Source: Candidatus Tayloriibacteriota bacterium (lineage in GTDB: Bacteria; Patescibacteriota; Minisyncoccia; Phycocordibacterales; UBA10002). From it: a stretch of 64,000 bases of DNA. Location of the stretch: assembly GCA_009694955.1 (NCBI GenBank), contig SIBZ01000001.1:63-64062 (forward strand), written 5' to 3'. The notes below the pieces were generated by a model that saw only the letters and a list, made by a program, of their open reading frames with translations, ran no database searches and had not been told where the DNA came from. The position numbers were made by a program, and so were the translations under genes. Shown piece by piece: positions 1-42,564 of this stretch. How positions within the stretch are numbered: position 1 is the first letter of the stretch; each line of letters begins with the position of its first letter.

Positions 1-770
1 TCAAGCGTTACTTCTATCACCCTGTCAGGGCTGTTTGCGGGAAGGCTGGCATTGTGAGCGGCAATGAGTTCTTGGTAGCGTTTGCCAATATTTTCGTGTC
101 TTCCCCCATCCGTATCTTCCCCCCCGTTATAGTACTCAAAGTACAGTTCCGGTCCGAATTTCGTCAGCTCTTCATTAGCCAATTTTCGCAAGTTGTCGAG
201 CTCCGTTGCGCGGGTTCTGTGTAGCTTCTTCGTTGCGTTCGGGTCAAACCCCATCGTCAAATCAGCGCTGTACATCACGTACTGTCGCTTTTTAATGCGC
301 ATTTCTTCCTTAAATCCGGAATCAAACTCATCGCTCTTGCGTACCTCAACCCAGACTCCCTGCATAATCGTTTCCGTCAGCTGTTCGTTTTGGAAGATTT
401 CAGGGGCATAGCGGTACCAGAGGGCTAGCTCCTTCGTGTCACGCATATTTCTGAGAGCCTTACGGAGTTCAGGATTTTCCCACCCGGGTTGCGTAGGTGC
501 CTCCGGCTTTACGTACTCTCCCGCCCTTCGCTTTTCCTCCATTTGCGTTTCCACCTCCTTTTGCAACGTAGCAATCACCTTTTCATTTTCTGCTACTTTT
601 TGTTCAATCCACGCAACAATAGCGCCGATTGTTTCTTTGTCGCCTTTGTCGATGCCCTGGACCCGCTTCAGGAGGTTTCCTCGGTCGGTATTGGGTCCCA
701 TCAGCCGAAGTTCGTTCAGAATGGCCTCGGCCTCGGGTTTTGCTTCAGTTAGAGGTGCTTCAGATACCAT
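1..770 (-). CDS. Hypothetical protein, 3'-partial: the ORF runs off the left window edge. Last gene of the minus-strand operon that also contains the TrbL-like gene.
   Basis: My own translation of the reverse complement from the ATG at 770-768 (a GTG at 776 is an alternative start) shows no stop codon through to position 1. It begins MVSEAPLTEAKPEAEAILNELRLMGPNTDRGNLLKRVQG... Its start lies 27 nt downstream of the stop of the 800..3856 gene on the same strand. It is absent from the ORF track, presumably because it has no in-window stop. Confidence 0.4.
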   Translation of the reverse strand, partial: MVSEAPLTEAKPEAEAILNELRLMGPNTDRGNLLKRVQGIDKGDKETIGAIVAWIEQKVAENEKVIATLQKEVETQMEEKRRAGEYVKPEAPTQPGWENPELRKALRNMRDTKELALWYRYAPEIFQNEQLTETIMQGVWVEVRKSDEFDSGFKEEMRIKKRQYVMYSADLTMGFDPNATKKLHRTRATELDNLRKLANEELTKFGPELYFEYYNGGEDTDGGRHENIGKRYQELIAAHNASLPANSPDRVIEVTL

Positions 771-799: not shown

Positions 800-3700
800 T
801 TAGTAAAGCAAATCACTCCCCCCTTTTTTCTTTCCCCTCTTCAATTCAGCCAAAATCTCCCTTAGGTATTCCTGTTCTTTTCTCATACCAGACAAGCTCA
901 TCTGTGACGGAAGTGCGTTTCGAATCGAATCCTCCCGGTTGACCGCAGTCTGATATTCGATATATCTCGCGTTGTACTCCTGCTTTCGCGTCTCACCGCG
1001 CTTTGAGTCTTCGACGAGGCGTTTTACGCGCGCGTGTATCATTTCCTGCTTTTCGCCTTCGGTCAGCGCGTGCTCATCTTCGGCAAGGGCGCGCACGAAA
1101 CTTGCGGGGAGCACTCCGTAATCCACGAGCTCCGGCTTGAAGTGGTCGTCCTTCGGGGTTAGTTCGATGTATTCCTGCGGGGTTAGTTTGGCGAACGCCG
1201 TCGACATCTTATTAACTAATTGGTCAATCGCACCTTGGTTTTTAACATTGAATTCCTTCAGCTCCTTCTCCGCCTCCTCCATTGCCTTCTCCGCTTTCGC
1301 CAGTCCGTGATACTCCGAAGAAAGTTGCGGTTCCAGGCTTGCTATTGCCGCTTTTGCGGCCTGGTCAGTTGGATTTTTGGCGAACTTTTCCTTTGCGTCT
1401 TTGTATTCAGTCCACCTCCGCAGAGCGTCTTTTTGGGCTTGTGTGGGTTCCTGCGCTGTAGCCAGACTCTGTCCCGCTAAAGTAACTCGGGATTGATGCT
1501 CTTTTGTCGCCCGTTCAAGCTCTTGTTCCGCCGCTGTAATTTGTACCTGTTGCGCCTGCTTCGCCAGCTCGAGTTTTTGCTCCGCCGCTGTAATTTGTAC
1601 CTGTTGCGCCTGCTTCGCCAGATCGCGTTTTTGCTCCGCCGCGGTAATTTGTACCTGTTGCGCCTGCTTCGCTCGGTCAAGTCCTTGCTGTGCGGTTGCG
1701 ATGGCAGGGGCTTGTTTTGCTTTCTCGGCATCCAGTTTCTTTTGCGCGTTTTCAACAAATCCTTGGAATATTTTGTTGTTCGGGTCTGTAGCAAGATCCG
1801 CCTTCTCTTCAGCGAGTCTTTTTTCTGCTGCCTCAATTTCAGGTGTTTTCCGCTCGGCTCGTTCAAGCTCTTGTTCCGCCACTGTGACGTTTCCTGCCGG
1901 TACTTTGGCCCGTTCAAGCTCTTGTTCCGCCACTGTGACGTTTCCTGCCGGTACTTTGGCCCGTTCAAGCTCTTGTTCCGCCGCTGTGACGTTTCCTGCC
2001 GGGACATTTGCCTGGTCAAGCTCTTTCTGAGCAGCTTCAATTTCCCTCACGTCTGCTTTCGCATCCGTGAGCGCCTTTTCCGCGGCGGCAACCTCCACAG
2101 GGTTGGGGTTTGCTGTCTGGGCCAGCTTGGAGGCATTTTCCGCTTCCGTTACGTTCTTGCGTGCATCCGCAAGAGCTATTTGATGTTGGCGTTGGTCTGT
2201 CCGAAGAGGGTGCAACTTCTCCCCCGCCCTCCGTGCGACATTTATGTGACCAATGGCGCGCCGAACCGAAGCGTCATGCTCGGACTCTTCGTACGCCTCT
2301 TCGGCAGACTTGCTCCCGCCGAATTTCGCATCCGCCATACGACCGGTTGTTTGTTCGCGGAAGAATTTGCCGACTGCGGTGTTTCCTCTGGGAGTCTGCG
2401 ACAGCCGTTCGTTGAGGTTACGCATACTGGTATATTTTAGCGCGCCGGCGCCAATTTTTGAAAACAAGCCGACGTGCTTATCATCCGCCATTTTCGCTGC
2501 GTTCTTCTCTTGCCACTTTTCCCCGAGATGCCCAAGCCCGAACCCCTGCATAGCGTGTCGTCCGACGAGGCCGGTCCCCTCTCCCTTCAGCTTGTGGCCC
2601 CATTCCATCATAAGGTCGCTTCCCCGAGCACCGAGCGATTGTGCGACGATGAGGCATCCGACCATTAAGCCGATGAGAATAATAAAGTTGAATACGATGA
2701 TAAGCGGAGCAGAAGTCGTTCCCGTCAGTGCCGCGGCGAATCCTTGCGTTCCGCTATTCGCGGCAATGCTCATCGACTGCTGAAAGGCGTCGGAGTTGAT
2801 GGTATACACCACGATGTAGGAAAGGAGGAGGTAGAGAGGCGCGAAAAACGCCTGGCTCCAGAGTTTGTTCCACCACGCGCTCGCAAGTCCCGACGCTCCG
2901 GGCAGAAGCCACGACACGAACGCGAGCGGGGAGAGGAGCATCAACATAATCAGTGTAATACCCCGCAAGACAAACATTATGGACGCCGCGAAGAAGACGA
3001 ACGCGGCGACAAGCATCAGCACCGAGCCGAAGAGGCCCATTAAGATGATGTTCAGCATATTGATGCCTCCGCCGATAAGGCTTGTGGTATTCGCCTGCTT
3101 TCCTCCCCCGTTCAGGCTGTTCGGGTTGTAAATCGTCTGGAGGCGGAGTCCTTGCATAAATGCTTCGGAGAGTCCCGCGTCCCCGCCCTGCCGATGTTCC
3201 GCTGGCGCTATGAGATTGTAGAAATGGAGCGCGGCTATATTGGACGCGTCAACCACCGCTTTGGTGATAAAGAGCGAAAAGTTGATGAAGATGGCGACGA
3301 GCACCATTTGTGCGAGAAACCCCCACGCCTGTTCGGCTTTGAGGCCGAGCGTAATCGAGATTCCACACCAGAGCGCGATGAAAATGAATACGATATTGGA
3401 TACATCGCGGATAACCTTCCATCCGATATCCACAATCGGAAGGTCATGCAAGAGACTGCTCATATTGAGCGTCCGCTCAAGTGTGATGTTAAGGAGTGCG
3501 CCGGATACCCAGAGTGTCCGTGCCGCGAGCCACATACCGAGGTTCGCAATCAAGGCGACACAGCCGTCGAGATTGATTGACGGGACGATACCAAGTCCGC
3601 TATATGCGACACAGCCTTTGGTCTGCGGAGGCTCCGAAGGCAGTTTACTCTTTCCGTTTTGCGGAGCGGTCGGAGACCCACCCTTTCCGTCGGGGGCGTA

Positions 3701-3856
3701 GCCTTTCTGGGCGGGAGGAGAGTCAAGTCCTGTCGCTCCCGGGTCAATACCCGGTATTCCTTGCGCGAGTACAAACGTCGTTGGCACAAAGAGTACCCCC
3801 GCAACAACGCTCGAGAGAAGGAGGCTCACTATACCGGTTGTGAAGAAGCGGTGCAT
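800..3856 (-). CDS. TrbL/VirB6-like polytopic membrane protein (T4SS inner-membrane component family) with a long C-terminal coiled-coil tail built from tandem repeats
   Basis: The 1018-aa ORF has an N-terminal signal/TM segment, then a block of 6 or more hydrophobic helices (…MLNIILMGLFGSVLMLVAAFVFFAASIMFVLRGITLIMLMLLSPLAFVSWLLPGASGLASAWWNKLW…) typical of TrbL/VirB6. The C-terminal ~450 aa are charged and helical, with 21-aa (QAQQVQITAAEQK.ELAK) and 17-aa (AKVPAGNVTVAEQELER) units each repeated 3 times. A 3-nt gap separates it from the upstream gene. Confidence 0.6.
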   Translation of the reverse strand: MHRFFTTGIVSLLLSSVVAGVLFVPTTFVLAQGIPGIDPGATGLDSPPAQKGYAPDGKGGSPTAPQNGKSKLPSEPPQTKGCVAYSGLGIVPSINLDGCVALIANLGMWLAARTLWVSGALLNITLERTLNMSSLLHDLPIVDIGWKVIRDVSNIVFIFIALWCGISITLGLKAEQAWGFLAQMVLVAIFINFSLFITKAVVDASNIAALHFYNLIAPAEHRQGGDAGLSEAFMQGLRLQTIYNPNSLNGGGKQANTTSLIGGGINMLNIILMGLFGSVLMLVAAFVFFAASIMFVLRGITLIMLMLLSPLAFVSWLLPGASGLASAWWNKLWSQAFFAPLYLLLSYIVVYTINSDAFQQSMSIAANSGTQGFAAALTGTTSAPLIIVFNFIILIGLMVGCLIVAQSLGARGSDLMMEWGHKLKGEGTGLVGRHAMQGFGLGHLGEKWQEKNAAKMADDKHVGLFSKIGAGALKYTSMRNLNERLSQTPRGNTAVGKFFREQTTGRMADAKFGGSKSAEEAYEESEHDASVRRAIGHINVARRAGEKLHPLRTDQRQHQIALADARKNVTEAENASKLAQTANPNPVEVAAAEKALTDAKADVREIEAAQKELDQANVPAGNVTAAEQELERAKVPAGNVTVAEQELERAKVPAGNVTVAEQELERAERKTPEIEAAEKRLAEEKADLATDPNNKIFQGFVENAQKKLDAEKAKQAPAIATAQQGLDRAKQAQQVQITAAEQKRDLAKQAQQVQITAAEQKLELAKQAQQVQITAAEQELERATKEHQSRVTLAGQSLATAQEPTQAQKDALRRWTEYKDAKEKFAKNPTDQAAKAAIASLEPQLSSEYHGLAKAEKAMEEAEKELKEFNVKNQGAIDQLVNKMSTAFAKLTPQEYIELTPKDDHFKPELVDYGVLPASFVRALAEDEHALTEGEKQEMIHARVKRLVEDSKRGETRKQEYNARYIEYQTAVNREDSIRNALPSQMSLSGMRKEQEYLREILAELKRGKKKGGSDLLY
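1512..1700 (-). repeat. Three near-perfect 63-bp tandem repeats inside the TrbL-like CDS, encoding the 21-aa coiled-coil unit
   Basis: Direct reading shows ...tgctccgccgctgtaatttgtacctgttgcgcctgcttcgccagctcgagttttt... three times with only a few substitutions. Confidence 0.85.
1857..2009 (-). repeat. Three near-perfect 51-bp tandem repeats inside the TrbL-like CDS, encoding the 17-aa unit
   Basis: cgttcaagctcttgttccgccactgtgacgtttcctgccggtactttggcc occurs three times. The third copy carries minor changes. Confidence 0.85.
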
Positions 3857-3859
3857 GGA

Positions 3860-6793
3860 TTAGTTGATGACAAAATCAAGCGGAAACGCAAGTGTCTTGT
3901 CCGCCCCCGAGTCATCTTTATACAAAGCCTCAATGAGTATTCGGACGGTACGTCCCTTTTCGAATCCGCCCGTAGCGAGAAGCGCATCCTTAAAGCCTAT
4001 GGCAACGGGCTTGTCAGGAGTTGCAGTCAGTCCCTCGGCGAAGATAATCGGTTTTGAGGTTTCTTGTATGTCTCCTAAACAAGAACCTTTCAATTTCCGG
4101 TTCGGTGGAGCGTCGGCGCAGACAATCGGATTTATTTTTCTGTCGCCTCCTGTGCCGAGAAGGAACGGTGGTGTCTCGCCGGACGTGATGGAATTCCCAA
4201 ACGCGAACACGAAGCTTTTGGTCCCGTTCGCGAACGTATCGAAATATTGCCTCCACTGCGCCGGAATAGTCGGAGGGCTTCCCACAAGCAGTTTCGCCTG
4301 GAGTGTTATGTTTTTTAGCTCTTTATTTGTCCGGAGTTGAATGGCGAGTTCCGGCGGAAGCGCGAGTGTTTCTCCCGCGATGAAGTCACGGCAAATACCC
4401 GAAGGACAGTTTCTCACGGAAAGAGATGTCGGATTAAATCCAACTTGCAGGGGAATGTTCTGGGGGACGGTCGAACCGGCACTGCCGACGGGTGTTTGCT
4501 TGCCGAACACCTCCACTTCGACGATGATGAGAGGGAAAAAGTATCTATCTGTGGCCAATGCAGATTGTTCTATTCGTACGTAACGCCCTTTAGTTCCAGT
4601 GGGGAGGGGAATAGTGTACCTAGGACTTCTGTACGTGTACAACGGAGCAGAGTTAGAAGAAGTTTGAGCTCGAACAGGAACCGAGTACACCACTTGTCTG
4701 GCGTCGTTCAAGACGGAGACCACAAAGCTTCCATTTCTAAGCGTGTTGTTGAACTCGCCATTTTTATCTGAGTCCCACGGTCCGGCGGGGCGGTAGATGA
4801 CCACCTCTTTTATTTCATCGGTGGTCCACCCCCTTGTCTTGTTTGCCCCGCTAGCTTCCAAGTCAACCTCCCACCATTCCGATGATTCCGATGAACCGGC
4901 GTTTGTGCAGGAAAAAGACAGATAGTTTCCGTCCCCTCCCGAAGTATTACCGTCTACCGCAACTTCGGCGAAAGGTTTTTGCGCCCAGTAGTTCCAGAAT
5001 TTGGTACAGTCGCTTGATTGCGAGGCAAGTTTCCCAACTGACATATTTCCTTCAATCGCTTGTGTTGGCGGAGGCGTAGTCCCGGTATTGCTTGGAGCAT
5101 TCGGTGCTCCGGCGCGAGTGAGTGCGTCATCGTTGTTCTGTTCCGCGTACTGGTTGACGCGGTTCCGGCAACCAACCTGCACCTGCTGGAAATACGTGGA
5201 CCATTCCGTGTCATCGGACTTGGTGATGAACTCCTGTCCCTCAGCCCTAACGAGAGTTTCATCTGGCCCGGGTGGGGCGCTGTGCTCAATTTCAGTCCCA
5301 TTCGTCTTTCGGTATGTCGGCACACTCGTGTTGTACACATAAGGGTCCCCCGTTGTTACTTTTCGATATGATTGCTGGCCCCCCGCCGTACTCTGACGCA
5401 CCGCAGCCGTTGGAAATCGAATAGTTTCTACTCCTTCGTAGGTTGCCCCACTATTTTCAAAGAGGTCGAACGGTACGGGTTTTGGGCTAACTGTAAGTCG
5501 TTGCCCGCGATTTTCAACCGTGTACGTCCTTCCCGCTTGTGCACCGTCGAGCAGTTTTACCGACAGGGTTTGAACTGGATTTGTTGCGGTCGAATCAGTA
5601 ATAATCCTTATGACTTCTGCGTTCGCCCGTCTATAGGAAACCAGCATCACACGATTGCTCCCCCCTCCTTCTGCTTGGTACTCAAAATCGCAGTTAATAC
5701 CCGCGGGTGGACGTATCGTTGCCAGCCGTTCCGCCGCTTCGGGGCTTGCGACCAGCTGGTCGAGGTATGACGGTCCTCCCCCCTGCTCCGGCTCGCTATT
5801 TCCAAGCAGTCCTCCGGGGCCGAGCGTTCGAACAAGGAGTTGGTTCACTAATGCTCCGAAAATCTCGTCAAGTTCGTCGGCGACCTCGAGTTCGCGGAGT
5901 GTGCTCGAGAGCGTGCTGTTTCCTTGCCCTACAATCATAGCGCCGGGAGTCTTTATCTTCCCCGGTGTCTTACACGCGCCTGTTCTCGTCACTTTGCCGT
6001 TGCGGTCTTTTTCGTCCGGGTAGTACTCTTCGCAACTTCTCCACGATTTAAATCCTTGGCCAAAATCGAGCAGTTTGATTTCTTTTCCGCTCGCGGTCAC
6101 AATGCTCGCATCGAGCTTGCTCACTGTCCCGAGGTACGCGCCGTACACATTGTTTTGCGGGTTGCCGGTGATTGATATCCAGTTGCGCCAACCGCCCGAA
6201 CGGAAGTTTCCCGTGACGAACGAGTCGTACGAACCGCGCACATTGGCAATCACATCGGAAAGCCGGCAACGGACATCTTCGCGGGTATTCAGCGAATATT
6301 GGAGACCGAGCGCGAATTGCAGGTTAAGGCGGAACGGAGCACAGAGCATTGGGGCGATTTTCTCTATTTCACGCCCGAATTCTTTATCGGCGACATCCAT
6401 AAGGAACCCTTCGGGGTTCGTTATGAAGGAAGGCTTGCCTTCAAATCCACTGTTTATCCAGTTAACGACGCTTTTGGTGAAACTCTGCAGTATGGTGCGA
6501 GCTATTTGTTTGGCCGTAATGTCCAGAATGCATTCTTTCAGCAAGCTTCCTTTTGTATTCGAATCAGTTTTTCTGTTATATGAAGCGACCGTAGAGTCGT
6601 ACGTAGGCACTTTAAATACATTTATCGCTGCTTCCCCAAGCGCCTGTGCCCCGCCAATAAGAGAGTTAAAGAGGTATCCTCCGAGGCATCCGAGTATGGC
6701 GTCCGTGCGTTTCGGGTAGAGCAAAAGAGCCGTTGGTGCAATAAGCAATACGGCAAAAAAAGGCGGCAACCATTTTTTCCACACCCTCTTCAC
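3860..6793 (-). CDS. Large secreted protein (977 aa) with a discoidin (F5/8 type C)/galactose-binding-like domain; first gene of an operon with the TrbL-like gene
   Basis: The N-terminus has a signal peptide (MKRVWKKWLPPFFAVLLIAPTALLLYP). A central segment (...YLSFSCTNAGSSESSEWWEVDLEASGANKTRGWTTDEIKEVVIYRPAGPWDSDKNGEFNNTLRNGSFVVSVLNDARQVVYSV) matches the W..VDL signature and length of discoidin domains. The ORF is long and uninterrupted. Confidence 0.65.
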   Translation of the reverse strand: MKRVWKKWLPPFFAVLLIAPTALLLYPKRTDAILGCLGGYLFNSLIGGAQALGEAAINVFKVPTYDSTVASYNRKTDSNTKGSLLKECILDITAKQIARTILQSFTKSVVNWINSGFEGKPSFITNPEGFLMDVADKEFGREIEKIAPMLCAPFRLNLQFALGLQYSLNTREDVRCRLSDVIANVRGSYDSFVTGNFRSGGWRNWISITGNPQNNVYGAYLGTVSKLDASIVTASGKEIKLLDFGQGFKSWRSCEEYYPDEKDRNGKVTRTGACKTPGKIKTPGAMIVGQGNSTLSSTLRELEVADELDEIFGALVNQLLVRTLGPGGLLGNSEPEQGGGPSYLDQLVASPEAAERLATIRPPAGINCDFEYQAEGGGSNRVMLVSYRRANAEVIRIITDSTATNPVQTLSVKLLDGAQAGRTYTVENRGQRLTVSPKPVPFDLFENSGATYEGVETIRFPTAAVRQSTAGGQQSYRKVTTGDPYVYNTSVPTYRKTNGTEIEHSAPPGPDETLVRAEGQEFITKSDDTEWSTYFQQVQVGCRNRVNQYAEQNNDDALTRAGAPNAPSNTGTTPPPTQAIEGNMSVGKLASQSSDCTKFWNYWAQKPFAEVAVDGNTSGGDGNYLSFSCTNAGSSESSEWWEVDLEASGANKTRGWTTDEIKEVVIYRPAGPWDSDKNGEFNNTLRNGSFVVSVLNDARQVVYSVPVRAQTSSNSAPLYTYRSPRYTIPLPTGTKGRYVRIEQSALATDRYFFPLIIVEVEVFGKQTPVGSAGSTVPQNIPLQVGFNPTSLSVRNCPSGICRDFIAGETLALPPELAIQLRTNKELKNITLQAKLLVGSPPTIPAQWRQYFDTFANGTKSFVFAFGNSITSGETPPFLLGTGGDRKINPIVCADAPPNRKLKGSCLGDIQETSKPIIFAEGLTATPDKPVAIGFKDALLATGGFEKGRTVRILIEALYKDDSGADKTLAFPLDFVIN

Positions 6794-7064: not shown

Positions 7065-8024
7065 CTACTCCAGTATCGCTACTCCGGGTTCCTTTGGGTC
7101 GAACGAGACGTTATGAAGCGTGAAAATCCGCTTCATTTCGGCGAAGGTGTTAGAAAGAAGCTCAAAACTATGTGGATATGTCCCAATACTGGCAAGCGCC
7201 TTTGCAGGGTCGCTTATCACGAACTTCATACCTGCGACGCTCTGCGCTATGCCACTCATCGCGTTTACGAGACTAATATGGCTATTTACAAAGGGTTCCG
7301 GCACCTCAACAAGCACGAGCTCATTTAGCATGCCCTTGTAGACTCCAATACGCTCGTCGAGGTCTTTGAGCACTGAATCATCCTCTCTTTCTATGGCGAT
7401 TGTAATGGTGTTGAGTTCATTTTCTCCTATGTTTGCGTATTTTTTGAAGATACCGGCGACTTCATTTCCGTATGTTCTTAAAGTTTTCAGGTTAAATGCT
7501 TCGCTGACTGTCAGGTCGGGCCGCTCATACAGCCTTACCGCATCGATCGGAGGAGGGTTGTTGAAGAATTTCAGAAGTAATTTGCGCTCATCATCGGCGG
7601 TAAGCGGTTGCCCGCTTTGTTTCATTTTGAGATATTCCCCGAACAGGTTTTGAGCGATATTATCGGTAAGCGTGGGCTCGTTTTTAAGTCCCAGAGTCGT
7701 TTTTTCTCCGACGGTTTGCGCATCAAGCTTGTCGTCAGGTCCCGCTTTAAGCGGGTCTCTACCCGAAGCCACTTCGACGCCGTCCGCGGTCGTATCTCTG
7801 TCAGTGTCGGGGTTGTTTCTGTCCGTCTTCCACAACTCCTCTTCCCAATCCTTCAGTCCGTCGCCATCCGTGTCGCGGTCAAGAATCGCGTTCACCTTCC
7901 CTATATTCTCTGTTGAGAGCGCCCCATAGACCGTTTCGCGCTTTTTCACCTTGAAACCGAAAAAGACCCCTACACCGATGATGGAGAGGGCGACGAGAAT
8001 GATAAGAAAACGGCGGAACATCAT
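7065..8024 (-). CDS. Membrane-anchored protein with thrombospondin-type-3-like Ca-binding Asp repeats (DxDxDG); paralog of the next gene
   Basis: N-terminal TM (MMFRRFLIILVALSIIGVGVFFGF), then DRDTDGDGLKDWEEELWKTDRNNPDTDRDTTADGVEVASGRDP. A C-terminal domain of unknown function ends ...FDPKEPGVAILE. Confidence 0.65.
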   Translation of the reverse strand: MMFRRFLIILVALSIIGVGVFFGFKVKKRETVYGALSTENIGKVNAILDRDTDGDGLKDWEEELWKTDRNNPDTDRDTTADGVEVASGRDPLKAGPDDKLDAQTVGEKTTLGLKNEPTLTDNIAQNLFGEYLKMKQSGQPLTADDERKLLLKFFNNPPPIDAVRLYERPDLTVSEAFNLKTLRTYGNEVAGIFKKYANIGENELNTITIAIEREDDSVLKDLDERIGVYKGMLNELVLVEVPEPFVNSHISLVNAMSGIAQSVAGMKFVISDPAKALASIGTYPHSFELLSNTFAEMKRIFTLHNVSFDPKEPGVAILE

Positions 8025-8073: not shown

Positions 8074-8946
8074 TCAAAAACTGAAAATGGCCCCCGGTTC
8101 TTCAGGACCAAAACGTATGCGCGCTTTCGTAAATGATTGCATAAGATTACTAAACGCCTGAGCCGCTGCAATAGCGGCATCATTGTAGTGGTCGAGGAAA
8201 CTCTGAGCCTGCAGAGTGAAATCTTTTTGTTCCGCGACAAGTTCTCGCACTCCTTTGCTTAACGCAGTATAACTCTTGGTAAGCGCTGTGTGATACATTT
8301 CAACGGGGGAAGGAGCGCGTATCGCTTCGAGCTTTTCGGATACTGTCCTGTATGTCTCGCTGAGCGCAGAAAGCCGGGCAATCGATGTTTCGCTTGGATT
8401 TTGCGTTGCTTCAGTAAAGACCTCATATTCAAGCTTCCCTTTTTGTAAGTAGAACAATATAAGCGTTCCAGCCTCATTTCCGTACGTGTGAAGTGCCTTT
8501 TGTTCGGCTGTTTCGTCCTGCTCCACGGGAGGCGGGGCATCCGCGGTTTTTGGTGCCGCTACATCTTGAGTTTTCGCGAAAGGGGAAAATGAAAGAGTAT
8601 AGTACGGAGCGAGAATTTTTTCTGTGACATCAGTACGCTGGTCCATCCCTTTTTTCGTAGGGTCGCGGCGAGATTGTACCTCGTTCCCATCTAAAGTTCC
8701 GTCTGCGTCAGTATCTGGGTTATTGGGGTCAGTGCGGTAAAGCACTTCTTCCCAGGCTGAAAGACCATCCTTGTCCGTATCGGTATAGACACTTATTATT
8801 CCGGAAGGGTCGGGCGCGGCGGCAGGCGACTTGGGAAGCAAGATTCTCTCAGTTTTTTTGAGGCCCACGTCTTGTTTGAGGAGTGGCCACACGCCCCATA
8901 TTATGGCGCATAAAGACAATAAAACTATGAAAATCTTCCGCGGCAT
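8074..8946 (-). CDS. Paralogous membrane-anchored protein with TSP3-like Asp repeats
   Basis: N-terminal TM (MPRKIFIVLLSLCAIIWGVWPLL), then DTDKDGLSAWEEVLYRTDPNNPDTDADGTLDGNEVQSRRDP. The C-terminus ends ...FGPEEPGAIFSF, with the same architecture as 7065..8024. Confidence 0.65.
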   Translation of the reverse strand: MPRKIFIVLLSLCAIIWGVWPLLKQDVGLKKTERILLPKSPAAAPDPSGIISVYTDTDKDGLSAWEEVLYRTDPNNPDTDADGTLDGNEVQSRRDPTKKGMDQRTDVTEKILAPYYTLSFSPFAKTQDVAAPKTADAPPPVEQDETAEQKALHTYGNEAGTLILFYLQKGKLEYEVFTEATQNPSETSIARLSALSETYRTVSEKLEAIRAPSPVEMYHTALTKSYTALSKGVRELVAEQKDFTLQAQSFLDHYNDAAIAAAQAFSNLMQSFTKARIRFGPEEPGAIFSF

Positions 8947-8984: not shown

Positions 8985-9434
8985 ATGGATACAGTGCGTG
9001 TTATGAAACTATTTCTACCCTCCCGGCGGCACTTCTGTGTCCGAGGTTTCTCTGTGCTAGGAATACTGCTTTTGTTGGTCAGTGTGTCAGCGCCTCTTCC
9101 TGTTTTGGCACAGGTGTCATTCGGCGGGCGAGTTACTTTTCAAGACCCCATCTGCCAAGGGCCACCATTCGTGCCGGTTGCCATGGAGTTTATCATTGCG
9201 CAACCACTACCTGAGGGAACTGGCGCGATACCCGTCCCGCTTATGTGGCCGCTTGGCCTTGTCACCTTTCAAAATGGACCACCAACGCACATCGGGCAAA
9301 ACATACTTGGAAAATGGTGGGGGTGGTTCCCTTGCATTCTCTGGATTTGGGTTCCCTGTGGGCTTTCAGTCTGTCCGTACCCCATCATTAAAGGCGGGGG
9401 CGGTATCATTATCTACAACGGTTCAGGCCTCTAG
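8985..9434 (+). CDS. Hypothetical small secreted or membrane protein (low confidence; the start may be the ATG at 9003)
   Basis: The ORF has a signal-like N-terminus (MKLFLPSRRHFCVRGFSVLGILLLLVSVSAPLPVLAQV) and is preceded by an extended -10 (tgttacaat, about 8970). It overlaps the rsmA 3' end convergently by 25 nt. Confidence 0.3.
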   Translation: MDTVRVMKLFLPSRRHFCVRGFSVLGILLLLVSVSAPLPVLAQVSFGGRVTFQDPICQGPPFVPVAMEFIIAQPLPEGTGAIPVPLMWPLGLVTFQNGPPTHIGQNILGKWWGWFPCILWIWVPCGLSVCPYPIIKGGGGIIIYNGSGL

Positions 9435-10185
9435 CAAGTGCAAACCATTGTTCGCAAGAGACATTTTCCGCCCGCGCGGTTGCGGAGATGTCGCATTGAA
9501 TGAGTGTTTCTCTCGTCACGCGCAGATTCGAGGAAAGCAGTTTCCGCGGATGTGAGAAGCCTTTTTTGAGTGTTTCAAAAAAAATCTGCTCGCTGATACC
9601 CTCAAAAAAATTCTTCGATATCCCCTCTATCGCGATAATCCCCGAATCTACTTTCGGAGGAGGAGAAAAGGACCCCGCTTTCACGGTGTCGATGTATCTG
9701 GGCGCGCCGTACGCTTTGACGCTTATCGAGAGGATGCTCTCTTTCTTGTCGCTTGCGACTATTCTCTTCGCCACCTCTTTTTGCAAAAGTAGCACCATTG
9801 CCGAGGGCTGTCTTTCCGATTCCAAGAATTTTCGTATCAGAGCCCCTGTAATGTAATACGGTATGTTTGCAACGACTTTATAGGAAGGAGTCAGTAGTAA
9901 GTAGTTAGTAGGAGAAAGGGTAAGGATATCGGCGTGAATAAGGCGCAGTTTCCCCTCGGCGATTTCTCTCGCGAATTTTTGTGTGAGTACCGGTATAAGC
10001 CGGTCGTCTTTCTCAACCGCGACAACCTTCCCTGCCAGTGCAAGCAGAAGCGCGGTGAGCACACCTTCTCCAGGGCCGACCTCGAGCACGGTATCTTCAG
10101 GCGAAAGACGGCCCGCTTCGGCGATTTTGTGAAGTGCGCTTGCGGAGCGGAGAAAATGTTGACCTAGTGATTTCTTTTTGAACAT
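9409..10185 (-). CDS. rsmA: 16S rRNA (adenine1518/1519-N6)-dimethyltransferase RsmA/KsgA
   Basis: Contains the hallmark SLGQHFL N-terminal motif, the SAM-binding segment VLEVGPGEGVLT and a 258-aa length. Confidence 0.9.
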   Translation of the reverse strand: MFKKKSLGQHFLRSASALHKIAEAGRLSPEDTVLEVGPGEGVLTALLLALAGKVVAVEKDDRLIPVLTQKFAREIAEGKLRLIHADILTLSPTNYLLLTPSYKVVANIPYYITGALIRKFLESERQPSAMVLLLQKEVAKRIVASDKKESILSISVKAYGAPRYIDTVKAGSFSPPPKVDSGIIAIEGISKNFFEGISEQIFFETLKKGFSHPRKLLSSNLRVTRETLIQCDISATARAENVSCEQWFALARGLNRCR

Positions 10186-11004: not shown

Positions 11005-12996
11005 CTACTCAAAAAAGATTATCTTCCCTCCTCCTTCCAGATAATTCTCCGCCTGCAGAAACTCCTCATCAATGTCAAAAATAAACTCGGACGGAACGGT
11101 GACTTGCCGAGAGCCAAAGATGGTACGCACTCCCGCGTACGAGAGAAATACTTTTTTCTTCGCCCGCGTGACTGCCACGTAGAACAGTCGGCGCTCTTCT
11201 TCAGAGGAGTCTTCGTTCTTTGTTTCGTTCATACGCTCGTGCGGGAACAGTCCCTCTTCAAGGCCGGCAATAAATACGTACTCAAATTCAAGCCCTTTTG
11301 ACGCATGCACCGTCATCAGGCGTACTGCCGGTTTTTCGTCTTTCAGCTCATCTTGGTCGCTCTGGAGAGCGACATCGGACAGGAATGCATCCACAGCGGA
11401 CAGGCGGTCCGTTTTCGCGTCATACCTCGTCGCAAACGTGACCAGTTCCTTGATGTTTTCGAGACGCTCTTCGTCTTCGGAACCTCCCTTTTTCAATTCC
11501 GCTTCAATTCCACTCGTACTTACAATCCATTTGATGGCCTCGGAAAGTGGGAGACTCGAGAGCTTCTGCCGGAGCTCGAGGAGGAGTTTCTTAAACGCGG
11601 AGAATTTCTCGCGCATCGCCGGCGGGAGCTCCCCTTCCTTCCCCGCGAATATTTTAAGAAGCGTCACTTTGCCGATACCGCGCGCCGGCACATTGATAAT
11701 CCTCCGAAGGTCGCCGATACTTTCCGGATTTTCGGCTGCGCGGACATAGGAGAGCACGTCCTTGACCTCTCTGCGTTCGAAAAACCGCACGCCAAGCACT
11801 TGATAGGACACTTCTTCGCGAAGAAACGCTTCTTCAAGTACCCGGCTCTGGAAATTTGCGCGGAAAAGTACCGCGATTTCAGCGGGAGAAACCCCTTCCC
11901 CGATAAGCTGTTTGGAGCGCTGTGCGATGAACGACGCTTCTTGGACTTCATCATAACCGGTAAAGAGTCCCACTTTCTCGCCTTCGCCGTTTTTGGTGAA
12001 CAGTGTCTTCTCCCTGCGCATCTTGTTTTTCTCAATGATGCGGTTGGCGACAGTGAGAATGGTTTGTGTCGAGCGGTAATTTTCTTCAAGCAACACTATT
12101 TTCGAATTCGGATAATCCTTCTCGAAATTAAGAATGTTCTTGATGCTTGCTCCGCGCCAGCTGTAAATATTTTGGTCAATATCCCCCACAACCGCGATAT
12201 TTTTGTGTGCTTCGGCGAGGAGCTTCGTAAGCATATACTGCACATGGTTCGTGTCCTGATACTCGTCAATGTGGATGTAGCGCCACAGTTTTTGGTAGTG
12301 TGCGCGGACGGCACCTTCCTTTTCGAGAAGAATGGCGGTTTTGAGTAAGAGGTCGTCAAAGTCGAGCGCCTTCTCCTTTTTCAGGAACGCTTCATATTTT
12401 TCCCACACCTCCCCGACTATCTGAGGATAGTATTCCCCCTCCGAACGCTCCTTAAACTTCGCGAGTTCGACCATCTTCCCTTTCTCCCTGCTGATTGCTC
12501 CAAGGATTTTTCCTGGCTCGAACTGCTTCGGGTCAAGGTCGGTTTCTTTGAGCGCCTCTTTGACGGCACTTATGGAGTCGCTTCGGTCAAAAATGGTAAA
12601 ACGCTTTGAAAGGCCGAGACGTTCGCTGTTTTCCCGCAGGATGTGTACGCCAAGAGAATGAAAAGTGCCGAGCCATGGGTATGTCGGAAGGACTGGGTGG
12701 TCCGGAGAAAGGGAACGGTCACTCGCCACGAGAGCGTGCACCCGCTCGCGCATTTCTTTTGCCGCTTTATTGGTGAAGGTAATGGCGAGAATGGATTCTG
12801 GAGGAACCCCTTTCTTAATGAGATGCAAAATCCGGTGCGTAATGACACGCGTCTTCCCCGCTCCGGCACCCGCGACGATAAGTAAGGGGCCTTCGGTGTG
12901 CTCAACAGCCTCCTTTTGTCGGGAATTGAGTCCGTGTAGATACTCCATCCCGTTAGAAGCAGGACACGGACACACGATATTGTCCGCATTCACCAC
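11005..12996 (-). CDS. pcrA: ATP-dependent DNA helicase, UvrD/PcrA/Rep family
   Basis: Carries the N-terminal LNSRQKEAVEHTEGPLLIVAGAGAGKTRVITHRILHLI Walker A motif and helicase motifs throughout; 663 aa. Confidence 0.9.
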   Translation of the reverse strand: MVNADNIVCPCPASNGMEYLHGLNSRQKEAVEHTEGPLLIVAGAGAGKTRVITHRILHLIKKGVPPESILAITFTNKAAKEMRERVHALVASDRSLSPDHPVLPTYPWLGTFHSLGVHILRENSERLGLSKRFTIFDRSDSISAVKEALKETDLDPKQFEPGKILGAISREKGKMVELAKFKERSEGEYYPQIVGEVWEKYEAFLKKEKALDFDDLLLKTAILLEKEGAVRAHYQKLWRYIHIDEYQDTNHVQYMLTKLLAEAHKNIAVVGDIDQNIYSWRGASIKNILNFEKDYPNSKIVLLEENYRSTQTILTVANRIIEKNKMRREKTLFTKNGEGEKVGLFTGYDEVQEASFIAQRSKQLIGEGVSPAEIAVLFRANFQSRVLEEAFLREEVSYQVLGVRFFERREVKDVLSYVRAAENPESIGDLRRIINVPARGIGKVTLLKIFAGKEGELPPAMREKFSAFKKLLLELRQKLSSLPLSEAIKWIVSTSGIEAELKKGGSEDEERLENIKELVTFATRYDAKTDRLSAVDAFLSDVALQSDQDELKDEKPAVRLMTVHASKGLEFEYVFIAGLEEGLFPHERMNETKNEDSSEEERRLFYVAVTRAKKKVFLSYAGVRTIFGSRQVTVPSEFIFDIDEEFLQAENYLEGGGKIIFFE

Positions 12997-13689: not shown

Positions 13690-14679
13690 TTGCTTTTGGT
13701 GTTCTCTTTCTTTTTGGCACCTATCGAAGCACACGCGGGCGTCTTTTCGTTTGTCGCCGGCCTGTTCACCGAAGAAGCCAAAGCGGAAAACACCTCCTCC
13801 CCCGTCAACTCCCAGAATGTCGGACTGCTTGAAGCTGTTCGCAATCCCGACCCTAATGCCGCAAAAGGCGGGGGTGATATTACCGTTGTCGGGGGTGTGG
13901 CGCTTCTTGCGGAAGCTGGTCCCGAAGGCACGCTCGCCAACATCGAAGAAAACCAGAGTTCCGCCATCAGTTTGTACATCGTGCGCGAGGGCGACACGCT
14001 GGGGGCTATCGCCAAGATGTTCGGCGTTACTACGAATACGATTGCGTGGGCAAACGACATTTCACGAGGCGTCATCCGTCCAGGACAGACGCTTATAATT
14101 TTGCCTATTTCCGGAGTCCGGCACACGGTAGCCAAAGGCGACACCATTCAAAGTATCGCCAAGAAGTACAAAGCAGATGTGACCGAGGTTGCGCAGTATA
14201 ACCATCTCACCGAGAGTGCAAAACTTGCTATTGGGGATATTGTGCTTGTGCCGGATGGTGAAATCGCCGCTCCCCCCACTGCGAGCGCGGCAGGACGGCC
14301 AGCGACACTCCACGGTACCAACGGACCGAATCTCGAAGGATACTACCTGCGTCCTCTTATCGGCGGACGCAAGTCGCAGGGTTTGCACGGATACAACGGT
14401 GTTGACCTCGCGAGCTATATGGGTGCCCCGGTTCTCGCCGCGGCGGCGGGTGATGTTATTATCGCTCGTTCATCAGGGTGGAACGGCGGGTACGGAAACT
14501 ATATTGTTATTGCTCACCCGAACGGAACACAAACACTCTACGGCCACCTTTCAGCGCTCGCTGTTACTCCAGGCAAGACCGTTGCGCGCGGGGAAATCAT
14601 CGGCTATCTCGGCAACACGGGGCGTTCGACCGGTCCGCATCTCCACTTTGAAGTTCGCGGAGCTAAGAATCCATTCTGA
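13690..14679 (+). CDS. Secreted peptidoglycan endopeptidase, M23 family, with two LysM domains
   Basis: Signal peptide, two LysM motifs (YIVREGDTLGAIAKMFGV...; HTVAKGDTIQSIAKKYKADV...) and an M23 core (...GYNGVDLASYMGAPVLAAAAGDVI...HLHFEVR). Confidence 0.9.
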   Translation: MLLVFSFFLAPIEAHAGVFSFVAGLFTEEAKAENTSSPVNSQNVGLLEAVRNPDPNAAKGGGDITVVGGVALLAEAGPEGTLANIEENQSSAISLYIVREGDTLGAIAKMFGVTTNTIAWANDISRGVIRPGQTLIILPISGVRHTVAKGDTIQSIAKKYKADVTEVAQYNHLTESAKLAIGDIVLVPDGEIAAPPTASAAGRPATLHGTNGPNLEGYYLRPLIGGRKSQGLHGYNGVDLASYMGAPVLAAAAGDVIIARSSGWNGGYGNYIVIAHPNGTQTLYGHLSALAVTPGKTVARGEIIGYLGNTGRSTGPHLHFEVRGAKNPF

Positions 14680-17855: not shown

Positions 17856-18287
17856 ATGCAATTTAAGGCCTATTTAGTGGTCATAGATTGTACTACGTGG
17901 TGTACTATACGCAGCAAGCACATTGTCGTGATTGCTAGAAAGGCAAATCTTATGAAAGTTTCCGCTTGTGTCGGTACAACGGTTTCCCGCCTTGCTCCCG
18001 TGGAAGGGCTTCAGTGTTTGCGGGTCGAGGTGGCTCCCCATGGGGAAATTCCTCTCCATCGGCACGACTGTGCCGCGACCATGATAGTGATCGCTGGAAC
18101 GGCTCGAAAGCTTCTGGCAAGTGGTAGGCCGGGCAGGATGGTGAGGGCCGGGGAGGTTGTCGTCAAGCAACCGAGAGAACTTCACGGTTTTGTTGACATC
18201 GGCCCCGAAGGATTTAAGTTTATCTCCCTTTCTTCGGGAGAAGGCATTGTTAAGGGCGAAAGTACATGGGACATAGAGTTCGCCTAA
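17856..18287 (+). CDS. Cupin-domain protein
   Basis: ...GEIPLHRHDCAATMIVIAGTARKLLASGRPGRMVRAGEVVV... is a cupin beta-barrel motif. The probable start is the Met at 17952. Confidence 0.5.
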   Translation: MQFKAYLVVIDCTTWCTIRSKHIVVIARKANLMKVSACVGTTVSRLAPVEGLQCLRVEVAPHGEIPLHRHDCAATMIVIAGTARKLLASGRPGRMVRAGEVVVKQPRELHGFVDIGPEGFKFISLSSGEGIVKGESTWDIEFA

Positions 18288-18326
18288 CGTCAGAGGGTTC
18301 AGCGCTTACGCACTGAACCCTACTTC

Positions 18327-19055
18327 ATGAAAGGAAGTATGAACATGATCAGCGCAGAAGAACTTCAGGTTTTAGAGCAAGCGGCACAGGGCGATCCATC
18401 AAAACTCCATCGGCTGATGGTAAGGAGACAGTTTGGTGAATCCCTGTCCTATGTGGTGGGAAAGGTACGATTCTGCGGTCGAGAATTCTGTGTCGATAGG
18501 CGTGTCTATATTCCAAATGTTGAGACGGAACAACTGGTGCGGTTGTTGCTTCGGGAGATGTCCCCCGCAGCTCGGATCATTGATGTCGGGACGGGTTCCG
18601 GAGCGATAGCGATAACCATACAAAGAGAGTGTCCGAAGTCGATGGTGTATGGGGTGGACATCGACCCGAATGCTCTCGAAGTCGCCCGCGCCAATGCGGC
18701 GAAGCATAAGGCCAAAGTCCGCTTCGTTGAAAGCTATTATCTCGACAATGTTGTATCTCCGGCACCCGACGCTATCATTGCCGATATTCCCTATGGGGAT
18801 CCACACTGTCAGCTTTCGAGCATTGTATGGAATGATTTTGAACAGGTTCCGAGAATCGCCACATTCCATCCCGATGGAAGGCTGACTGCCTATCAGGAAC
18901 TGATAGAGTCTATTGTAAAGAAGAAGTGGCACACAGTCCTCTATATCGAGACCGGTAAGATTTCAAAATCAGAAGTATCTGAGATCATTCCCGTTTCCCA
19001 CAAGTGGAAATATGTAGCTATGAAGGGCTACTCGGTTACGAAAGTATATTTCTAG
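18327..19055 (+). CDS. HemK/PrmC-like SAM-dependent methyltransferase with an atypical DIPY motif IV
   Basis: It is collinear with PrmC: ...CVDRRVYIPNVETEQLV..., IIDVGTGSGAIAI, VYGVDIDPNALEVARANA, and IIADIPYGDP in place of NPPY. Confidence 0.65.
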   Translation: MKGSMNMISAEELQVLEQAAQGDPSKLHRLMVRRQFGESLSYVVGKVRFCGREFCVDRRVYIPNVETEQLVRLLLREMSPAARIIDVGTGSGAIAITIQRECPKSMVYGVDIDPNALEVARANAAKHKAKVRFVESYYLDNVVSPAPDAIIADIPYGDPHCQLSSIVWNDFEQVPRIATFHPDGRLTAYQELIESIVKKKWHTVLYIETGKISKSEVSEIIPVSHKWKYVAMKGYSVTKVYF

Positions 19056-37979: not shown

Positions 37980-38735
37980 ATGGACCATCAAGAGCTGCTT
38001 CAGTCGCTTGGGTTATCGAAGAACGAGGCCAAGATATATGAAACCCTGCTTCGGCAGGGCGAGGTTGGCGTGGGTGTTATCTCGGAGAAATCCGGCGTAC
38101 ATCGTCGGAATGTGTACGATTCCCTTAATCGCCTTATGGAAAAGGGTCTTGTGTTTGAGGTTGTTGAGTCGGTAGAGAACAAATATCAGGCGTGCGAACC
38201 GAAGAAACTGACGGAAATCGTCATCGAGAAACTTGAGGCAGTTGATAAAGCACTACCGGAACTGGAAAAACTCCACTTCAGCACACCGTCCACTTATCGC
38301 GTACACACATACCGCGGCAAGGAAGGTTGGAAGCAATATATGCGCGATATCATCAAGACTGGCGAGCCGTTTTACTCCATCGGCGCGCAGGGAGCATGGC
38401 TTGATGAACGGGTAAAGTCGTTTATTCCGGCGTTTCTGCAACAATTAAAAACAAAAAAGATACCGATGCATCATTTGTTTGATTCCGACGTGAAGGCAAG
38501 CAACCATCCCATTCTCAAAGAGGTGGGGAAAGACTATAAATTCCTGCCGAAAAAGTACGCGACCACCTCCGGCGTTGATATCTTCGGGGACCATGTGAAC
38601 ATCATGCATCATCAATATCTTGGTCAAGTCGGCACCGACGACGAAATCACCTTTACTGTTATTGTGAACAAAAATCTCGCCGACTCCTTTCGCACGTGGT
38701 TCCAGTACATGTGGGACATGTGCCCAAGAAATTAG
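37980..38735 (+). CDS. TrmB-family transcriptional regulator (paralog 1)
   Basis: N-terminal TrmB wHTH (LGLSKNEAKIYETLLRQGEVGVGVISEKSGVHRRNVYDSLNRLMEKGLV). The C-terminus ends ...FRTWFQYMWDMCPRN. Confidence 0.7.
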   Translation: MDHQELLQSLGLSKNEAKIYETLLRQGEVGVGVISEKSGVHRRNVYDSLNRLMEKGLVFEVVESVENKYQACEPKKLTEIVIEKLEAVDKALPELEKLHFSTPSTYRVHTYRGKEGWKQYMRDIIKTGEPFYSIGAQGAWLDERVKSFIPAFLQQLKTKKIPMHHLFDSDVKASNHPILKEVGKDYKFLPKKYATTSGVDIFGDHVNIMHHQYLGQVGTDDEITFTVIVNKNLADSFRTWFQYMWDMCPRN

Positions 38736-39561: not shown

Positions 39562-39650
39562 AGTGTCTAGTGGTGGTATTTGCCACTCACTCACTATTCT
39601 ATATCATTTTACGCAAAAGGCAACCTTTATGCCTTTTAGTCAATAAAGAT

Positions 39651-41182: not shown

Positions 41183-41244
41183 ATCTCGCCGACTCATTTC
41201 GCACGTGGTTCCAGTACATGTGGGATATGTGTCCGAAAAATTAG
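41183..41244 (+). repeat. 62-bp direct repeat of the 3' end of the TrmB paralog-1 gene (38674..38735), with 5 mismatches. In frame it encodes ...LADSFRTWFQYMWDMCPKN.
   Basis: Direct DNA comparison: atctcgccgactcMtttcgcacgtggttccagtacatgtgggaYatgtgYccRaRaaattag. Confidence 0.85.
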
Positions 41245-42511: not shown

Positions 42512-42564
42512 ACACCACCACCCCGTCCCGCCGACGGGACACCCCTCCTCAACTGAGGAGGGGA
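42512..42564. repeat. 53-bp double-hairpin repeat (acaccaccaccccgtcccgccgacgggacacccctcctcaactgaggagggga), 100% identical to 46997..47049
   Basis: Hairpins gtcccg-ccga-cgggac and cccctcctc-aactg-aggagggg. Diverged relatives are at 51897..51950 and 56432..56476. Confidence 0.85.

Follow-up and report, generated by a model that had tools for sequence, protein, structure and literature searches.

What machine is served by three closely packed genes on the minus strand, at one end of a 64,000-nucleotide stretch of contig SIBZ01000001.1 from Candidatus Tayloriibacteriota bacterium (the whole stretch being referred to here as the window), is the question raised by this locus. The upstream gene (3860..6793, GTG start) encodes a 977-residue secreted or surface protein, as judged from its open reading frame (ORF), homologues, AlphaFold model, Foldseek matches and cysteine count; it is followed by the gene for a 1018-residue protein (800..3856, ATG start), and by a third ORF (3..770) that holds the initial 256 residues of a 442-residue protein and runs off the window. 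An initial annotation of this DNA had described three co-directional genes with gaps of 3 and 27 nt; the shared direction and the 3-nt gap (TAA-TCC-ATG) stand, while the second gap measures 29 nt. On the 69,040-bp source contig, which continues for approximately 2.2 kb past window position 1 and then ends, the third gene encodes 442 residues and is followed by a gene for a 537-residue protein, with no later gene listed. A scan for promoters and terminators yielded nothing decisive, and no convincing minus-strand terminator was seen between the three genes. The analysis described below indicates that the middle gene very probably encodes a divergent member of the VirB6/TrbL family, the VirB6 of a type IV secretion system (T4SS) from the candidate phyla radiation (CPR), and that the locus probably represents the promoter-proximal half of a chromosomal T4SS of the Patescibacteria type, working by the mechanism proposed further on. 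The genome is that of a member of the Parcubacteria/Paceibacteria close to Candidatus Taylorbacteria, and the system has already been described at the level of the phylum, the present locus being a variant of it. The observation made in the initial annotation is, as a whole, partly confirmed, and its interpretation is supported and essentially right.

In the 1018-residue protein, a signal peptide precedes a hydrophobic core of polytopic type (aa ~82-436, 2549..3613, minus strand), and a long hydrophilic helical tail follows. The core is composed of a beta-hairpin bracketed by cysteines, followed by seven long helices, and among 107 aligned members its invariant residues include N154, F159, N192-F193-S194-L195, D203, N206, R298, P310 and P340. 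When the membrane core (aa 1-489) served as query, 195 homologues were retrieved, all named ones belonging to Parcubacteria/Patescibacteria and originating from Parcubacteria, Taylorbacteria, Zambryskibacteria or Patescibacteria metagenome-assembled genomes (MAGs). Three of these homologues (P0039, P0059 and P0078), which match the core of the window protein with E values of 1e-41 to 1e-56, pass the gathering score of the Pfam family TrbL (PF04610) with 28.5-35.2 bits, the cut-off being 25.9; in the sample of family members that was scanned, TrbL was detected in 11 of 61, TrbL_4 in three of 61, and other families in none. In addition, an AlphaFold model built from the 107 sequences displays the seven long helices of the core at a predicted local distance difference test (pLDDT) score above 90, and when this core was compared by Foldseek with 350,542 chains of the PDB, the first three ranks were occupied by TrwI/VirB6 of R388 (probability 0.97-1.0), with Legionella DotA in fifth place. 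It is the convergence of transitive Pfam matches, of AlphaFold and Foldseek results, and of the gene neighbourhood that leads to the VirB6/TrbL assignment.

A number of observations weigh against this assignment. The 1018-residue protein itself has no direct Pfam or NCBIfam match at E<=1 and no PDB sequence match, and the matches to TrwI/VirB6 carry Foldseek E values of only 0.02-0.05 and a target-normalised template-modelling (TM) score of 0.40. A search of PHROGs gave nothing useful, and a profile of the whole family recovered from PDB sequences only coiled-coil noise attributable to the tail (CCDC6, SMC, TolA and others). The hidden Markov model check of the membrane core proposed in the initial annotation is thus negative when performed directly and positive through homologues; the TrbL/VirB6 core that it had recognised is borne out by those homologues, by the structural matches to TrwI/VirB6 and by synteny with VirB3, TrsD and VirB4. 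It is of note that the protein, with its core at aa 82-436 and a hydrophilic tail of 582 residues, has the architecture of an extended VirB6, a class defined by Alvarez-Martinez and Christie (summarised in PMC12857230) through five or more hydrophobic helices and a hydrophilic domain of large size in central or C-proximal position. The role of such extra domains is stated as unknown for all T4SSs (PMC12857230).

Gene order in relatives links the window genes to a secretion system. The loci compared were those of Parcubacteria GW2011_GWA2_49_9 (L001), L003 and L004, those found by pattern search (L006-L013), and that of a close relative (L014, ENA ERZ27280297). The conserved order begins with uvrD, ksgA, one or two genes for TSP3-repeat proteins, a large protein and the VirB6-like protein, and continues with small or medium ORFs, PrgI (VirB3-like), TraC-like/TrsD, a VirB4-type ATPase and several further ORFs; in L003 and L004 it ends with yidC, rnpA, rpmH and dnaA. 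PrgI/VirB3, TraC-like/TrsD and VirB4 are encoded downstream, in the same order, in eight of the eight loci that offer enough sequence (L001, L003, L004, L007, L008, L011, L012 and L014), and in two shorter loci the sequence stops at PrgI or TrsD. The window holds the uvrD, ksgA and TSP3 anchors, as well as the orthologues of the large protein, of VirB6 and of the next gene. Two points must be held against the reading of the locus as half of a T4SS: neither VirB3/PrgI, TrsD/TraC-like nor VirB4 is encoded on any part of the contig, the window included, and the linkage of the window genes to a T4SS rests on the orthologous loci. In relatives approximately 5.5-7.5 kb separate the last codon of the VirB6 core from the start of VirB4, a distance that puts VirB4 beyond the end of the contig. 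As to the suggestion that further T4SS genes might lie past position 1, the contig ends first, and the genes are present downstream in the eight orthologous loci.

The tail of the VirB6-like protein (836..2548, minus strand) comprises a juxtamembrane linker rich in Gly, Lys and Arg (aa 437-517), which AlphaFold renders as disordered, and a series of long helices (aa 518-1007), the longest of which spans 108 residues. With 582 residues, as compared with a median of 298, it is the longest among the 107 aligned family members. Two tandem arrays are located within it: a 51-bp unit present three times (1856..2008, minus strand; aa 617-667; TRF score 291), which encodes the 17-residue motif [N/K]VPAGNVT[A/V]AEQELERA, and a 54-bp unit also present three times (1511..1672, minus strand; aa 729-782; TRF score 272), which encodes the 18-residue motif AKQAQQVQITAAEQxxxL. 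Their TRF scores place both far beyond chance. Copies of the first differ from each other at 1-3 positions and those of the second at 3-5 or more; together they account for approximately 105 residues of the ~580-residue tail, and they are embedded in older, degenerate 17- and 18-residue arrays with the common motif AAEQxLxxA. No tandem array beyond these two was found when the whole 64 kb was scanned for repeats of at least 40 nt, and a 28-bp row in the TRF output (56 % matches) was set aside as a by-product of the 51-bp array. The 51-bp array had been identified correctly in the initial annotation; the 63-bp array listed beside it does not exist, the second array being 54 bp x3, the copies are near-perfect and not perfect as had been stated (1-5 or more differences), and the tail, estimated at ~450 residues and said to be made of these repeats, extends over ~580 (437-1018), with just ~105 in the recent arrays.

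A coiled coil had also been proposed for this region. The long helices of the model and a clear heptad pattern in two segments (strong at aa 586-617 and 806-889) agree with it, while periodicity is absent elsewhere and reaches only a moderate z = 3.1 overall; a defensible description is a long helical tail, partly coiled-coil-like. Comparison with the close relative L014 is informative as to the history of the repeats, since its orthologue has 935 residues and aligns with clean gaps of 34 and 36 residues with respect to the window protein, each repeat unit being present once there and three times here. As these gaps correspond to two units of each repeat, the window arrays have expanded, or those of L014 contracted, recently, in agreement with the recent expansion and copy-number variability anticipated beforehand. 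Both sequences are short-read metagenome assemblies, which counts against this conclusion in that copy number, like the mosaicism described below, could in principle be an assembly artefact; against such an artefact, the exact 1018-residue and 974-residue proteins recur on two and three contigs, respectively.

The distal part of the tail is also modular. A C-terminal module (aa ~796-1007, 836..1471, minus strand), recognised by tblastn and blastp, has conserved counterparts in L006, L009 and L014 and weaker ones in L007, L008, L010 and L012; in L001 and L002, part of it (window aa ~877-990) forms a separate ORF of 136 residues in another frame. A homologue search with this module gave no matches. 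The product of the third gene, the 442-residue protein, carries neither a signal peptide nor a transmembrane segment, and in five loci (L006, L007, L008, L010 and L011) a region homologous to it continues the VirB6 reading frame at the C-terminal end, in ORFs of 1215-1334 residues that contain no stops. The possibility that these fusions stem from masked bases was rejected, as the fused ORFs contain none. Past VirB6, the orthologous loci encode a protein of 430-450 residues followed by one of 535-620 residues; those of L014 (450 and 535 residues) lack a Walker A motif and are without relatives in Pfam or the PDB. Core, tail, C-terminal module and 442-residue protein therefore make up a single polypeptide in certain genomes and are divided over two or three elsewhere, a classic sign that the parts work together. 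A modular, repeat-expanding VirB6 tail with fusion partners does not appear in the available parts of the published accounts of Patescibacteria T4SSs that were examined.

From its N-terminus, the 977-residue protein displays a signal peptide, a conserved N-terminal domain, beta domains, an F-type-lectin-like module and C-terminal beta-sandwiches of immunoglobulin (Ig)-like type. The putative signal peptide or N-terminal anchor (aa 1-32, 6698..6793, minus strand) is recognised from the sequence, the family consensus ending in KAEA. The conserved domain that follows (aa ~62-345, 5759..6610, minus strand) is mostly helical and belongs to a large unannotated family, with 4,514 cluster representatives at E<=1e-3, in all of which it is N-terminal; its invariant positions include W112, F117, C151, C176 and T282-P283-G284. 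It matches no Pfam family and has no PDB relative, also when a profile of this domain only is used. The C-termini of the family vary, and include F5/8-type-C, Bact_surface_Ig-like, PKD and InlB B-repeat modules. Cysteines are conserved in the family, the window protein containing 14. The model's secondary structure delimits a C-terminal beta-sandwich region (aa ~809-977, 3863..4369, minus strand), which L014 shares with 100 % identity. Foldseek comparison of the whole model gave weak matches to the adhesins ClfB, CNA and SdrG of the MSCRAMM (microbial surface components recognizing adhesive matrix molecules) type, with TM ~0.23 and no aligned ranges printed; we take these to fall on the beta-sandwich domains of the model.

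The F-type-lectin-like module (aa 581-765, 4499..5053, minus strand), of the discoidin superfamily, behaves as a variable cassette. The window sequence scores 23.3 bits against the Pfam family F5_F8_type_C_2, below the cut-off of 27.8, while the relative P0146 passes at 55.6 bits and 17 of 60 family members match. A family profile finds F-lectins of the PDB (3CQO, 3LE0, 2J1R and 1K12) with E values of 7.7e-25 to 5e-12, and the modelled module superimposes on solved F-type lectins with a Foldseek TM score of 0.77-0.79 (probability 1.0); the first of these E values and this TM range uphold the earlier description of a secreted 977-residue protein with a discoidin-like domain. The fucose-binding triad of F-type lectins consists of His...Arg...Arg, in the motif HX24RXDX4R/K. 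In the window protein the His is replaced by Asn (SCTN, versus SCTH in 1K12) and in L014 by Asp, so that the triad is incomplete, and the loop that bears the Arg residues is interrupted by an insertion. These features count against fucose recognition, and since the canonical His is replaced the domain is best termed F-type-lectin-like rather than a proven fucolectin, with putative sugar binding.

The variability of this cassette becomes apparent when the window is aligned with L014. In the gene for the 977-residue protein, codons 1-543 and 794-977 are 96-100 % identical in nucleotide sequence, as are the TSP3 gene and the VirB6 core; the core is ~97 % identical. Within this background the lectin module retains only 20-67 % amino acid identity, as opposed to 98-100 % in its flanks, with break points that fall at exact domain borders, from 'PPPTQAI-GN' to 'EVEVFGK'. 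A second break occurs at VirB6 codon ~431, beyond which the tail and the 442-residue gene drop to 65-77 % nucleotide identity; the C-terminal module forms an island of 93 % nucleotide identity inside this divergent block. The simplest reading is that the lectin module has been replaced by recombination between strains. A diversity-generating retroelement was considered and rejected: it is made unlikely by the absence of a template-like repeat of 4499-5053 in the 64-kb window, and an amino acid identity of 20-30 % exceeds what adenine-directed mutagenesis would produce. A lectin-bearing family with this N-terminal domain and cassette-like variation is likewise not found in the available parts of the published Patescibacteria T4SS accounts that were examined.

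Other explanations of these genes deserve to be weighed together. If the middle protein were simply an unrelated polytopic membrane protein with a coiled-coil tail, its TrbL likeness would be spurious, in keeping with its lack of direct Pfam, NCBIfam or PDB sequence matches; homologues that exceed the gathering score, top-ranking structural matches that are specific to VirB6, and an invariant linkage to VirB3, TrsD and VirB4 leave this idea a negligible probability. It is also very improbable that the genes form a mobile conjugative element (an integrative and conjugative element, ICE, or a plasmid) dedicated to DNA conjugation. VirB6, VirB3 and VirB4 do have their ancestry in conjugation, and the MPF-FATA (mating-pair formation, FATA) conjugative systems form the sister group of the CPR VirB4 clade, but the locus occupies one chromosomal position, between uvrD/ksgA and yidC/rnpA/dnaA, across distantly related genomes, and it is on this conserved housekeeping synteny that the ICE/plasmid reading was rejected. 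Moreover, no discontinuity in GC content or GC skew is seen at the locus, and the published survey recorded relaxases in only 103 Patescibacteria genomes (109 homologues, as compared with 2,474 virB4 genes), only 15 of them near virB4. The divergent VirB6 of a resident, chromosomal T4SS therefore remains the preferred identity of the middle protein.

Two further alternatives concern the parts of the locus rather than its nature, and the first is the side of the membrane on which the tail lies. In the 107 sequences, ~13 K+R versus ~5.5 D+E are counted over the 80 residues that follow the final core helix, whereas a net acidic charge or a paucity of K+R marks the 355-382 loop and the linker after the signal peptide; tail modules that occur as proteins of their own (136, 416-450 and 535-619 residues) possess no signal peptide, no transmembrane segment and 0-1 Cys; and the tails, including that of the window protein, are free of Cys over 580-900 residues, as opposed to the 14 Cys of the secreted neighbour. 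By the positive-inside rule, by the absence of signals from the separate modules and by the absence of Cys, the tail is reasonably likely to be cytoplasmic, and its earlier description as surface-exposed or periplasm-spanning is disfavoured. Two considerations tell against a cytoplasmic tail. AlphaFold draws aa 267-307 as one helix of 41 residues which, counted as a single pass, would give an even number of crossings (six) and a C-terminus outside; and in the R388 machine, as solved, the membrane holds only helices a1 and a2 of the seven in VirB6, the rest forming the periplasmic base of the stalk, so that topology rules for polytopic proteins may mislead and the tail could lie outside. The alternative would have most VirB6 helices leave the membrane after assembly, as in R388, and the C-terminal helices from five subunits come together as a stalk or needle across the wall towards the host, with repeat expansions tuning its reach. 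Monoderm T4SSs lack VirB5, VirB9 and VirB10, so some other part must span the wall; strains differ far more in the tail than in the core, as exposed parts would; and the repeat-rich VirB6 extensions of Anaplasma have been postulated to be surface-exposed. Yet a strong net positive charge characterises the juxtamembrane region throughout the family, signal-less separate modules could not reach the outside via Sec, cysteines are missing from the tail, and the divergent block includes the signal-less 442-residue gene, such that divergence alone does not imply exposure; an extracellular tail is consequently considered rather improbable. The second alternative concerns the 977-residue protein. A homologue of its N-terminal domain is found next to or near VirB6 in L001, L003, L004, L007-L009 and L011-L014: it lies directly upstream, 3 nt away in the window and L014 and 1 nt away in L004/L005, and a short distance upstream in L001, L007-L009 and L011-L013. 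This association persists across lineages whose VirB6 cores are just 30-37 % identical, and slightly favours the view that the protein is an adhesin or specificity factor linked to the T4SS. Such a view is weakened by its reliance on gene neighbourhood and by L003, where the homologue lies ~4.5 kb from VirB6 on the other strand. The protein could instead be a general surface adhesin or cell-wall protein that merely adjoins the T4SS genes without being part of the machine: it shows no homology to any T4SS component, its L003 homologue is non-adjacent and in opposite orientation, and its family is very large (4,514 clusters). Given the repeated pairing with VirB6 in distant lineages, this bystander role is judged unlikely.

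Taking the T4SS-linked adhesin and the cytoplasmic tail as working assumptions, a mechanism can be proposed. The 977-residue protein would be exported, and its conserved N-terminal domain would associate with the T4SS at the cell surface, while the lectin and Ig-like modules could bind surface glycans of the host cell and help set host specificity, a proposal that would account for the replacement of just the lectin in strains that are almost identical. VirB6 would form the membrane base of the translocation channel, with its ~580-residue tail facing the cytoplasm, where, together with the C-terminal module and the 442-residue (and possibly the 537-residue) protein, it may constitute a scaffold beside the VirB4/TrsD ATPases; expansions of the 17- and 18-residue repeats would alter the length of a helical spacer. 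By analogy with Saccharimonadia, the machine would move macromolecules between epibiont and host rather than serve conjugation. A bolder and more doubtful extension is that the locus contains two undescribed parts of the CPR T4SS. One would be a cytoplasmic docking platform formed by the VirB6 tail, the C-terminal module and the 442- and 537-residue proteins, which might recruit substrates in the manner of a coupling protein. The other would be the 'missing adhesin', a family of more than 4,500 clusters in which a Cys-containing N-terminal domain might dock to the system and swappable modules of lectin, Ig-like or PKD type might set the host range.

The interest of these candidates lies in their bearing on the cargo of the T4SS, on its route to the host and on the determinant of host specificity. 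An unannotated family of surface proteins encoded beside virB6, with a lectin exchanged between near-identical strains, is a plausible determinant of host recognition, and the pattern of fusion and fission of the VirB6 tail points to the 442- and 537-residue proteins as physical partners. If the adhesin and tail readings were wrong, the locus would be one more copy of a system described between 2023 and 2025. According to PMC12857230 (with Wang et al. 2023 cited there), T4SS genes are indispensable to the epibiotic growth of Southlakia epibionticum, and no T4SS before the Patescibacteria system had been shown to be one without which its own bacterium cannot survive (PMC12857230). This published system matches the episymbiont machinery suggested in the initial annotation.

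Upstream of the three genes, two paralogous TSP3-repeat proteins with hydrophobic N-termini are encoded on the minus strand at 7065-8024 (319 residues) and 8074-8946 (290 residues); their Pfam TSP3_bac scores fall just under the cut-off. Relatives conserve them at this place, with KsgA on one side and the T4SS genes on the other; an accessory role is probable. The housekeeping anchors, assigned by Pfam on called genes and by synteny, are rsmA/ksgA (9409-10185, minus strand) and a uvrD/pcrA-type helicase (11005-12996, minus strand), with an ion-channel gene on the plus strand between them; both recur in L001, L004, L009, L012 and L013, and in the window they lie 5.5-9 kb upstream of virB6. The window UvrD is 75-78 % identical to those of Parcubacteria GWA2_49_9 and of a Taylorbacteria MAG. 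On the plus strand, between ksgA and the TSP3 genes, an ORF of 149 residues (8985-9434) displays a signal-peptide-like N-terminus and a mature part rich in Pro, Gly, Trp and Cys, with no Pfam match; at the corresponding place L001 has a 158-residue gene with no detectable similarity. Just past uvrD, the plus-strand ORF at 13690-14679 corresponds in position and size to a 326-residue LysM plus Peptidase_M23 protein called on the source contig, an arrangement that L004 shares; peptidases of the LysM/M23 type may, according to the literature, replace VirB1 in Patescibacteria T4SS loci.

The related loci contain additional features. In L007 and L011 the VirB4 gene harbours an in-frame insertion of 633 residues (L007:12611-14509 and L011:11439-13337), with the frame open throughout; a large intein within this T4SS ATPase is the most likely explanation. 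Small PDDEXK_3 genes lie among the T4SS genes of L001 (PrgI, TraC-like and VirB4) at L001:16822-17229 and 17966-18400, and a gene of the 23S_rRNA_IVP family among those of L014 (L014:10662-10985); these insertions look like selfish or accessory elements that vary between genomes. Downstream of VirB4 in L003, a 277-residue protein (L003:17196-18029) scores 18.8 bits against Pfam T4SS_pilin, below the cut-off of 26.6, in agreement with reports of VirB2-like pilins at CPR T4SS loci.

Elsewhere in the window, a 67-nt direct repeat (93 % identical, 4.5 kb apart; 42498-42564 and 46983-47049) contains two GC-rich hairpins, CCCGTCCCGCCGACGGGAC and CCCCTCCTCAACTGAGGAGGGG, and looks like a repeated terminator or small intergenic element. 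A 62-nt direct repeat (92 % identical, 2.5 kb apart; 38674-38735 and 41183-41244) lies at the 3' end of the ORF 37980-38735 and just past the end of the ORF 39570-41162, and may be a duplicated 3' segment. Inverted repeats of 59 nt (71 % complementary; 58608-58666 and 60302-60360) flank a 550-residue ORF (58655-60307) and could mark a mobile element or a regulatory feature. Four tRNA genes are present (28436-30302 and 49029-49099), three of them clustered at 28.4-30.3 kb, where the GC content falls to ~45 % and the GC skew switches sign.

Among known systems, the chromosomal T4SS of Patescibacteria/CPR matches in the component set of the orthologous loci, in the vicinity of ksgA (and, among relatives, of rnpA, rpmH and dnaA), and in host lineage. 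In the survey by Quinonero-Coronel et al. 2025 (PMC12102498), that system is described as comprising VirB4, TrsD, PrgI/VirB3, VirB6 and VirB2-like pilins, as related to the monoderm class MPF-FATA, and as chromosomal, origin-proximal, close to ksgA and dnaA and mostly devoid of a relaxase. The survey reports that no adhesins were detected for these systems (PMC12102498), and in the text examined it is silent on C-terminal extensions of VirB6, on their fusion with and fission from downstream genes, and on the N-terminal-domain family of the 977-residue protein. Just the upstream half of the published cluster is present in the window. The MPF-FATA elements, exemplified by pCF10 (PrgH/PrgI/PrgJ, with the adhesin PrgB), share with the present system a VirB6/PrgI/VirB4-like core without outer-membrane components and a separate adhesin. 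They differ in that the 977-residue protein is not homologous to PrgB, no PrgB-like adhesin having been found in the survey, and in that most CPR clusters lack a relaxase, the locus being chromosomal and linked to housekeeping genes rather than carried by a mobile element.

As regards individual proteins, the seven-long-helix core is common to TrwI/VirB6 of R388 (PDB 7O3V, 8RT9 and 8RTD), from which the window protein differs by a sequence identity of ~15 %, a TM score of only 0.40, and the addition of a signal peptide, an acidic Pro/Gly linker with the Cys-bracketed hairpin, and the ~580-residue tail; the VirB5 partner of the R388 setting does not exist in monoderm systems. The lectin module shares with F-type lectins (eel agglutinin 1K12, FBP32 3CQO, S. 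pneumoniae SpX-1 2J1R and S. mitis lectinolysin 3LE0) the fold and the motifs QSS, AxDGN, WWxVDL and EVEVxG, and departs from them at the fucose-binding His (Asn, or Asp in the L014 allele) and in the insertion within the Arg loop. The closest precedent for the repeat-bearing tail is provided by VirB6-3 and VirB6-4 of Anaplasma phagocytophilum (PMC3556328), in which a VirB6 core is likewise joined to a C-proximal hydrophilic repeat domain whose copy number varies between strains. The Anaplasma repeats are acidic units of 84-405 bp in up to 81 copies, as compared with three copies of 51 or 54 bp in the window, and the extensions have no sequence relationship; unlike those of Anaplasma, the tail described here is rich in Ala, Glu, Lys and Gln, is helical, and is split from or fused to neighbouring genes.

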